From the NCBI RefSeq assembly GCF_011045215.1, contig NZ_CP049201.1: a DNA stretch of 64,000 bases, one strand, 5' to 3'. The notes below the pieces were generated by a model that saw only the letters and a list, made by a program, of their open reading frames with translations, had not been told where the DNA came from and searched no databases. A program made the translations under genes and the position numbers. Origin of the DNA: Escherichia coli (GTDB lineage Bacteria > Pseudomonadota > Gammaproteobacteria > Enterobacterales > Enterobacteriaceae). Below are positions 1,804 to 2,538 of this stretch, one piece after another. Position 1 is the stretch's first letter, and each line of letters opens with the position of its first letter.

Positions 1804-2538
1804 ATGAGCTGTTTTTGTATTCATTTTAGCAGCCATCTCCATGATGGTATTGACAGTGGCTGTCCCGGTAAGAAATATGATATACACCGACCATTAAATA
1901 TGCTGGCGTTAAGCTGGCATAATACTTCTGGTCGCTATTCACTGGGGGGAAGTTATCAGAAAGATGATTCCGTGCAAATTTTAGGGGAATTAAATAAAAA
2001 ATTTAAGATCCGTGAAAGAGATTCTGCGAAAAGTCAGTTAAAATTTTTCTACGCTGAACTTGAGGGTTTTAATAAAGAAAAAAAGAGAAGGGCTGGGGAA
2101 CCTGATGATACCTATCTCCTTTCCGGACAGATATCATTTAATACACCTGATTTTGGAGCATTTGTCAGTGCGGGATATATTAATCATGCAATATCAGGAA
2201 CAAATGTAGATACCGATCGTTCTTATGTATATTCTCTGAGTATAGATCGTAATAAAGAACAAATGTACTCTTTTTAGACAGGATTTACATATAACATCAC
2301 ACCAGAATTAAGTGCAATGATGACCCATGGTTATGAATCCAGTCGTAAAGATGTAGAAATACAGGGGGCATGTATTTTGGGAGCAATGACTTACAATATC
2401 AATAATGGACCTAATATATTTCTTTCTGCAGACAGATGCAGAGAAAAAAGAGATGGCAGCCGTTTTGGTGATCGTCTTAATTATTGGGATGTTAAATTAA
2501 GTATTAGGTATGATATATATATATATGATTCTCTGTAA
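1804..2538 (+). pseudogene. Beta-barrel-like ORF interrupted by an in-frame TAG (2275-2277); no signal peptide at N-terminus; likely gene remnant
   Basis: ORFs 1804-2277 and 2317-2538 are in the same frame, separated only by the amber codon; alternating hydrophobic pattern. Confidence 0.3.

Follow-up and report, generated by a model that had tools for sequence, protein, structure and literature searches.

An interrupted C-terminal half of a UidC/GusC-type porin gene, very probably a relic, in the cargo of a tRNA-Phe-linked island of Escherichia coli

Introduction

In Escherichia coli, uidC encodes the outer-membrane component of glucuronide transport (PMC9460963). Its product, UidC (also called GusC), belongs to the uidABC (gus) operon. 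Porins of the UidC type belong to the OprD/Occ family (PF03573), which consists of 18-stranded, monomeric, substrate-specific porins. A third described system that concerns us here is the group of E. coli islands linked to tRNA-Phe genes (pheU/pheV). Their cargo is a mosaic that holds gene remnants, among them IS fragments and truncated genes.

We analyzed a stretch of 64,000 nucleotides from E. coli (contig NZ_CP049201.1 of assembly GCF_011045215.1), hereafter called the window. An earlier note on this DNA, made from the sequence alone, had read positions 1804-2538 as, most likely, an outer-membrane protein gene in decay, and had kept programmed read-through and a sequencing error as alternatives. 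That reading holds, and the gene can now be named: what survives is the C-terminal half of a porin of the UidC/OprD family. We are highly confident that 1804-2538 is a non-functional relic of a UidC/GusC-type porin gene that was acquired horizontally and lies in the cargo of a tRNA-Phe island.

Results

A single coding frame interrupted by one amber codon

The frame that runs from 1804 to 2538 contains one internal stop in 245 codons, as against 10-32 stops in each of the other five frames. When the segment was base-shuffled 20,000 times, no shuffle gave one stop or fewer in that frame (shuffle mean, 19). The open frame is thus genuine coding sequence, far beyond what chance would produce. The earlier note had described two ORFs in this one frame, 1804-2277 and 2317-2538, split by a TAG at 2275-2277 and 13 sense codons, and its coordinates were exact. 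The features of the locus and of its surroundings are collected in Table 1.

Table 1. Features of the porin relic and of the island in which it lies (positions of the window)
Feature	Position	Strand	Basis or remark
Left EAL module	116-1654	+	EAL gene 781-1569; Pfam EAL, E 6.5e-20
Junction DNA, EAL module to relic	1655-1803	.	Holds the 65-bp element, 1727-1791
Upstream ORF	1804-2277	+	ATG 1804 opens 157 codons; ends at TAG 2275-2277
5' breakpoint zone, presumably fortuitous ATG and ~22 codons	1804-1872	+	No firm family homology
UidC/GusC-type (OprD/Occ family) porin relic	1873-2523	+	Residues ~200-420 of a ~421-residue protein; one frame
Amber codon TAG	2275-2277	+	Stands in place of a conserved Gln
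Spacer between TAG and ATG 2317	2278-2316	+	39 nt, 13 sense codons, same frame
Downstream ORF	2317-2538	+	ATG 2317 opens 73 codons; ends at TAA 2536-2538
(AT)7 run (2513-2526) in the last codons, then TAA	2513-2538	+	Read from the sequence
Right autotransporter module	2788-5550	-	AIDA/MisL-type gene 2997-5549; Pfam Autotransporter, AC_1, Pertactin
Island backbone and attachment site	6269-11498	.	NCBIfam, ARAGORN, Rfam
HTH gene	within 6269-11498		NCBIfam
UvrD-like helicase	7042-8622		NCBIfam
TraI/MobH-type relaxase, PFGI-1 class	8534-10180 as listed		NCBIfam
Tyrosine recombinase	10238-11230		NCBIfam
tRNA-Phe (pheU)	11423-11498	-	ARAGORN and Rfam; followed by core genes dicD-dsbD-cutA-dcuA-aspA

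The frame encodes the C-terminal half of a UidC-type porin

We joined the two ORFs through the TAG and compared the resulting 244-residue product with family profiles. Residues 23-240 matched positions 199-420 of the 421-position NCBIfam profile NF008479 with an E value of 1.3e-69; the score was 235.2 bits, below the full-length cutoff of 510 bits, so the match does not amount to full-length membership. When E. coli UidC was searched against the window by tblastn, its residues 200-420 gave a single match at 1873-2523, running through the TAG (E 1e-61). Each of seven full-length relatives likewise gave one match, in one frame, at about the same positions and through the TAG. In an exhaustive HMMER (phmmer) search of 1.84 billion representative proteins, the best matches were proteins of 421 and 461 residues with 51-52% identity, and residues 2-217 of the query aligned to their residues 200-419. 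One of these best matches, P0003, we take to be E. coli UidC. The relic and UidC are about 50-52% identical, end to end, over the C-terminal 222 residues. The choice of search mattered: Pfam gave no meaningful match with the products joined or split, and the family was detected through NCBIfam only; a word-indexed protein search returned a single 124-aa fragment, and the full-length relatives came from the exhaustive HMMER search. The relic, with a GC content of 35%, is not the host's own uidC.

Membership of the OprD/Occ group was examined through the relatives and through structure. The full-length relatives P0003 and P0006 match PF03573 with 25.4 and 55.2 bits, respectively (cutoff 25), and the family profile matches solved structures of OprD/Occ porins; the relic itself stays below the PF03573 gathering score, joined or split. 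The 222 homologous residues were modelled with AlphaFold on the basis of an alignment of 18 sequences; the mean pLDDT was 81.5, and 11 beta-strands were predicted. A Foldseek search of the PDB with this model gave the Occ/OprD channels 5dl7, 3sy9, 3jty, and 3sy7 as top matches, with TM-scores to Occ structures of 0.6-0.67 when normalised to the query and about 0.4 when normalised to the target. These findings bear out the earlier description of the ORFs as beta-barrel-like. The model is not a closed 18-stranded barrel, since it has 11 strands and superposes over the length of the query only. Given a target-normalised score of about 0.4 beside a query-normalised score of about 0.65, the relic as modelled is about half of an 18-stranded barrel. 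A half barrel that lacks a signal peptide is neither exported nor able to close into a pore.

The front half of the gene is missing

We then asked where the N-terminal half of the porin is. A tblastn search with UidC residues 1-199 found only noise in any frame of the 64-kb window, even at E values up to 10, and the first 200 or so residues of the seven full-length relatives had no match in any frame of the window either. Family homology starts at about 1873, near residue 23, by both HMM and tblastn, with one relative extending it to 1831. The 22 residues in front of this point, MSCFCIHFSSHLHDGIDSGCPG, are unrelated to the family and show no signal-peptide character by inspection. The earlier note had remarked that the N-terminus lacks a signal peptide; it is lacking because the entire N-terminal half of the gene is absent. 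The main lesion is the 5' truncation, and the amber codon is secondary. Neither an IS end nor a target duplication was identified at the relic's own breakpoints.

Signals for expression were sought in front of both ORFs. The 15 nucleotides before ATG 1804, GCACTATCACTTATT, contain no purine-rich Shine-Dalgarno sequence, and none precedes ATG 2317. A promoter scan returned 4 promoter-like sites where 7.3 were expected in shuffled sequence, which is not above chance. The 13 residues of the spacer, TGFTYNITPELSA, align with LGVNYRLTPQFTL of UidC within the single continuous match; because the spacer aligns with the porin family, ATG 2317 is an internal methionine codon rather than a start. Judging from the sequence, neither ATG 1804 nor ATG 2317 would be a real start, and no porin would be made.

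The amber codon replaces a conserved glutamine

In the alignments, the column of the TAG is glutamine in E. coli UidC and in P0001, P0007, P0008, P0010, and P0011. It is glutamine in at least 90% of 17 relatives, within a local motif S-W-Q, and a stop stands at this column in none of 14 full-length relatives. The simplest history at 2275-2277 is probably a change of CAG to TAG, with the ancestral codon, like the exact 5' breakpoint, deduced by comparison with relatives of no more than about 50% identity. Neither a close intact parent nor a CAG allele of the relic was found in the collections searched.

The amber codon might instead stem from an error of sequencing or assembly, with CAG as the true codon at 2275-2277; such an error would take a single base only. 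This is very unlikely. A Logan de Bruijn assembly of run SRR11014969, a contig of 4,297 bp, is 100% identical to 1625-5921 and includes both the TAG and the 5' junction. The run and the window may derive from one isolate, in which case the agreement excludes an assembly error and provides no second strain. Moreover, the lesion is a substitution and not an error in homopolymer length, and even with CAG restored some 200 N-terminal codons and the signal peptide would still be gone, leaving a pseudogene. The sequencing error that the earlier note had allowed for thus loses its footing, as an independent assembly reproduces the TAG.

The relic lies between separately occurring modules of a tRNA-Phe island

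The core genes of the window (dicD, dsbD, cutA, dcuA, and aspA) are 99.4% identical to those of E. coli, showing that the host is E. coli. The relic is situated about 8.9 kb from the tRNA-Phe gene. From 6269 on, the backbone resembles islands of six E. coli genomes (94% identity). These related islands occupy a different tRNA-Phe site, next to yqgA-speC. The helicase and relaxase ORFs as listed overlap by 89 nt, compared with 8 nt in E. coli VG35A2, and the relaxase start is probably further downstream than listed.

The first 7 kb or so of the window are cargo, mosaic in composition and about 35% in GC. Within positions 1-7000 there is no other large ORF besides the EAL and autotransporter genes. 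The EAL module is 96.3% identical to the chromosome of E. coli RM8082, and the homology ends at 1654-1656; at the RM8082 locus other genes lie downstream, and no uidC-like gene is among them. An exact-protein look-up of the EAL protein found it not on record; the corresponding look-up of the autotransporter protein was successful. The Logan contig described above stretches from 5921 to a point within the EAL module, of which it includes 30 nt (1625-1654). If the Logan k-mer length is 31, as we assume, this would fit a de Bruijn graph that branches at repeated modules and would suggest more than one copy of the EAL module in the genome of SRR11014969.

RM8082 also carries an annotated porin with a missing N-terminus, located about 3 kb downstream of its homologous EAL gene (L002, positions 7138-7776). 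We considered this gene as the relic's counterpart and rejected it, as it is an OmpC/OmpF-type fragment and unrelated. A porin relic of different descent is thus found in similar island surroundings.

On the right, the autotransporter module shows 97.1% identity to the chromosome of E. coli IBS28, starting from exactly 2788; for several E. coli plasmids the figure is 92-94%. RM8082 has the EAL, autotransporter, and backbone modules too, but scattered over three places, one being a plasmid. The relic segment itself, the 1.1 kb from 1655 to 2787, stands between the EAL and autotransporter modules, which other E. coli carry apart from each other. Using megablast and blastn, we searched the complete E. 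coli genomes (5,426) and plasmids (72,556) for this segment and found nothing of it but a 65-bp element.

This 65-bp element is dispersed, unannotated, and sharp-ended, and lies upstream of the 5' breakpoint of the relic, at a distance of about 80 bp. It was found in about 1,320 of the 5,426 E. coli genomes, many of them ETEC, and in 62 plasmids, at 80-91% identity. It usually occurs once per genome, always with different flanks and without an annotated feature. Other copies contain a hairpin of the form ATCACGG...CCGTGAT. Rfam, run on positions 1-12000 of the window, matched nothing but tRNA, and gave no match for the element. The element may be a mobile-element end, a recombination site, or a small RNA.

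The surviving half is little decayed

The 222 surviving codons contain no frameshift. At positions conserved in at least 85% of the relatives, 32 of the 33 residues are kept, which equals the score of intact members, and the GC contents at codon positions 1, 2, and 3 are 42, 38, and 24%, a coding-type pattern. Relative to the family, the relic shows two 4-residue gaps and a divergent tail, YDIYIYDSL in place of YDF[MT]LK, and this tail overlaps the (AT)7 run. The run is a microsatellite, and the change of the tail may be a repeat-expansion lesion. The description of the remnant as decaying can thus be refined, in that the surviving half has decayed little. Because there is no frameshift, the codon-position GC is kept, and 32 of 33 conserved residues remain, the lesions look young, and both of them are probably fairly recent.

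Low decay could, in principle, also mean that some constraint remains on the fragment. The fragment might have taken on a new role, such as that of an untranslated region or a regulatory RNA for a neighbouring gene, and this would explain the good preservation of the conserved positions and of the frame. We regard this as very unlikely: Rfam on 1-12000 yielded only tRNA, the preserved features are protein-level ones (the codon-position GC) and point to youth rather than to constraint on an RNA, and none of the other E. coli that we searched has the segment, so that there is no conservation to be explained.

Relatives are single genes, and none is a close parent

We scanned 100,044 species, with one genome for each, and obtained 14 full-length relatives. 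Their hosts include Enterobacter, Cedecea, Escherichia whittamii, Klebsiella, Salmonella diarizonae, Samsonia, Pantoea, Edwardsiella, and Celerinatantimonas. No relative in these 100,044 species genomes was more than 49-50% identical to the relic. The earlier note had named homologues in the form of two separate small genes as the observation that would speak against a split gene. Upon examination, all 14 relatives proved to be single, uninterrupted genes of about 420 codons.

The closest sequence found, a uidC-like gene, occurs on contigs from two metagenome samples (L005/L006; ENA ERZ501063, Logan SRR1950748). Its identity to the relic is 57% over the last 124 residues and about 50% when 215 residues are compared. 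This gene, like the relic, is inactivated by a single in-frame TAG (L005, 2253-2255). Here, the TAG replaces a conserved tryptophan (TGG to TAG), about 50 codons upstream of the position of the stop in the window. Since the stops fall in different codons, the two amber codons are, on the alignment, independent mutations. The L005 gene differs from the relic in being full length, with a signal peptide, and in being preceded by a 455-residue gene. Two C-terminal stubs were also observed, one of 39 codons in Edwardsiella piscicida (L021, 3989-4102) and one of 23 codons in Escherichia sp. MOD1-EC7003 (L022, 4001-4069). Given the amber codon of L005/L006 and these two stubs, broken copies of the UidC-like family are not rare. 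In an Anaerobiospirillum metagenome-assembled genome, two uidC-like genes lie within about 3 kb on the same strand (L019, 3371-4660 and 5215-6393).

A closer parent was sought in about 15 billion predicted proteins, the 100,044 species genomes, the 5,426 E. coli genomes, the 72,556 plasmids, and JGI metagenomes, and no close intact parent above about 50% identity over the whole relic was found. Metagenome scans with an exact 39-mer that had N at the first base of the stop, and so covered both TAG and CAG alleles, gave 0 matches, as did a codon-degenerate 63-mer for DGSRFGDRLNYWDVKLSIRYD.

These relatives also bear on the second alternative of the earlier note, that programmed read-through or suppression of the amber codon, for example by a glutamine-inserting supE-type tRNA, joins the two ORFs into a functional protein. 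The ORFs are in one frame, a glutamine suppressor would restore the ancestral residue, and the closest relative also has an in-frame TAG, albeit at another site. We nevertheless give this possibility next to no credence. Read-through would yield half a barrel that stays in the cytoplasm, with neither a signal peptide nor a ribosome-binding site; a stop is found in 0 of the 14 full-length relatives, and that of L005 is at another codon, for tryptophan; and the only tRNAs in the window are tRNA-Phe and tRNA-Gly. To our knowledge, no programmed amber recoding system exists in E. coli chromosomal genes. With some 200 N-terminal codons and the signal peptide absent and the stop unconserved, the question of read-through becomes moot.

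Equally little weight can be given to two genuine, separate small genes of 157 and 73 aa, for which it may be said that a gene caller lists products of 125 and 73 aa on the Logan contig. Against it, homology to a single protein is continuous through both ORFs and the 13-codon spacer, and every relative is a single gene. Moreover, a Shine-Dalgarno sequence is lacking in front of both ORFs, and in 5.8 or 1.8 billion sequences no family of proteins like either ORF was seen other than fragments of UidC-like genes.

Discussion

Taken together, the locus combines the marks of a pseudogene: homology to a family, truncation together with a premature stop, no Shine-Dalgarno sequence, and no promoter above chance. 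It lacks what a functional UidC has, namely full length, a signal peptide, an intact frame, and linkage to uidA/uidB. Glucuronide uptake by such a half gene is not to be expected from its sequence.

We envisage the following course of events. A porin gene would have arrived with the AT-rich cargo of the island. Some 600 nt of its 5' end are lost, and with them the signal peptide and about half of the barrel; this truncation probably arose in the recombination or insertion events that put the mosaic of modules together and joined the relic to the EAL module. A C-to-T nonsense change at 2275 would have taken place before or after the truncation, and the gene as it now stands would make no functional product.

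An ordinary pseudogene is a very familiar kind of object. The one mild oddity here is that the parent lineage of the porin is unsampled in the collections searched. One may speculate that the relic is the sole sampled trace of an AT-rich lineage of UidC/Occ-type porins in which loss of the porin has been selected for recurrently, although we consider this unlikely. The independent amber codon of the closest relative and the C-terminal stubs in two other species would fit such a history. The selection could come about, for example, if these porins act as entry gates for phages, colicins, or toxic glucuronides, and the losses would then not be neutral decay.

The relic reading has practical consequences. 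In annotation, 1804-2277 and 2317-2538 should be entered as one pseudogene (UidC-family porin, missing N-terminus, internal stop) in place of two hypothetical proteins. Module boundaries lie at the junctions 1654 and 2788, and they help to reconstruct the assembly of the island cargo.

Finally, we compare the locus with the known systems. With UidC (GusC) of the uidABC operon, the relic shares the C-terminal 222 residues, in which the residues conserved in the family are kept; it differs in being half a gene, without a signal peptide and interrupted by a TAG, and in scoring 235 bits where a full-length member requires 510. Unlike uidC in its operon, it has no uidA- or uidB-like neighbours and sits between EAL and autotransporter genes. 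With the OprD/Occ porins it shares a fold, in that its model superposes on theirs, but it gives no Pfam match to PF03573. Like the other islands linked to tRNA-Phe in E. coli, this one has cargo of about 35% GC and flanking modules that occur separately, and the truncated gene that it carries has its like among the IS fragments and other truncated genes of related loci. What sets it apart from those islands is the relic segment itself, which was seen in no other complete E. coli genome.
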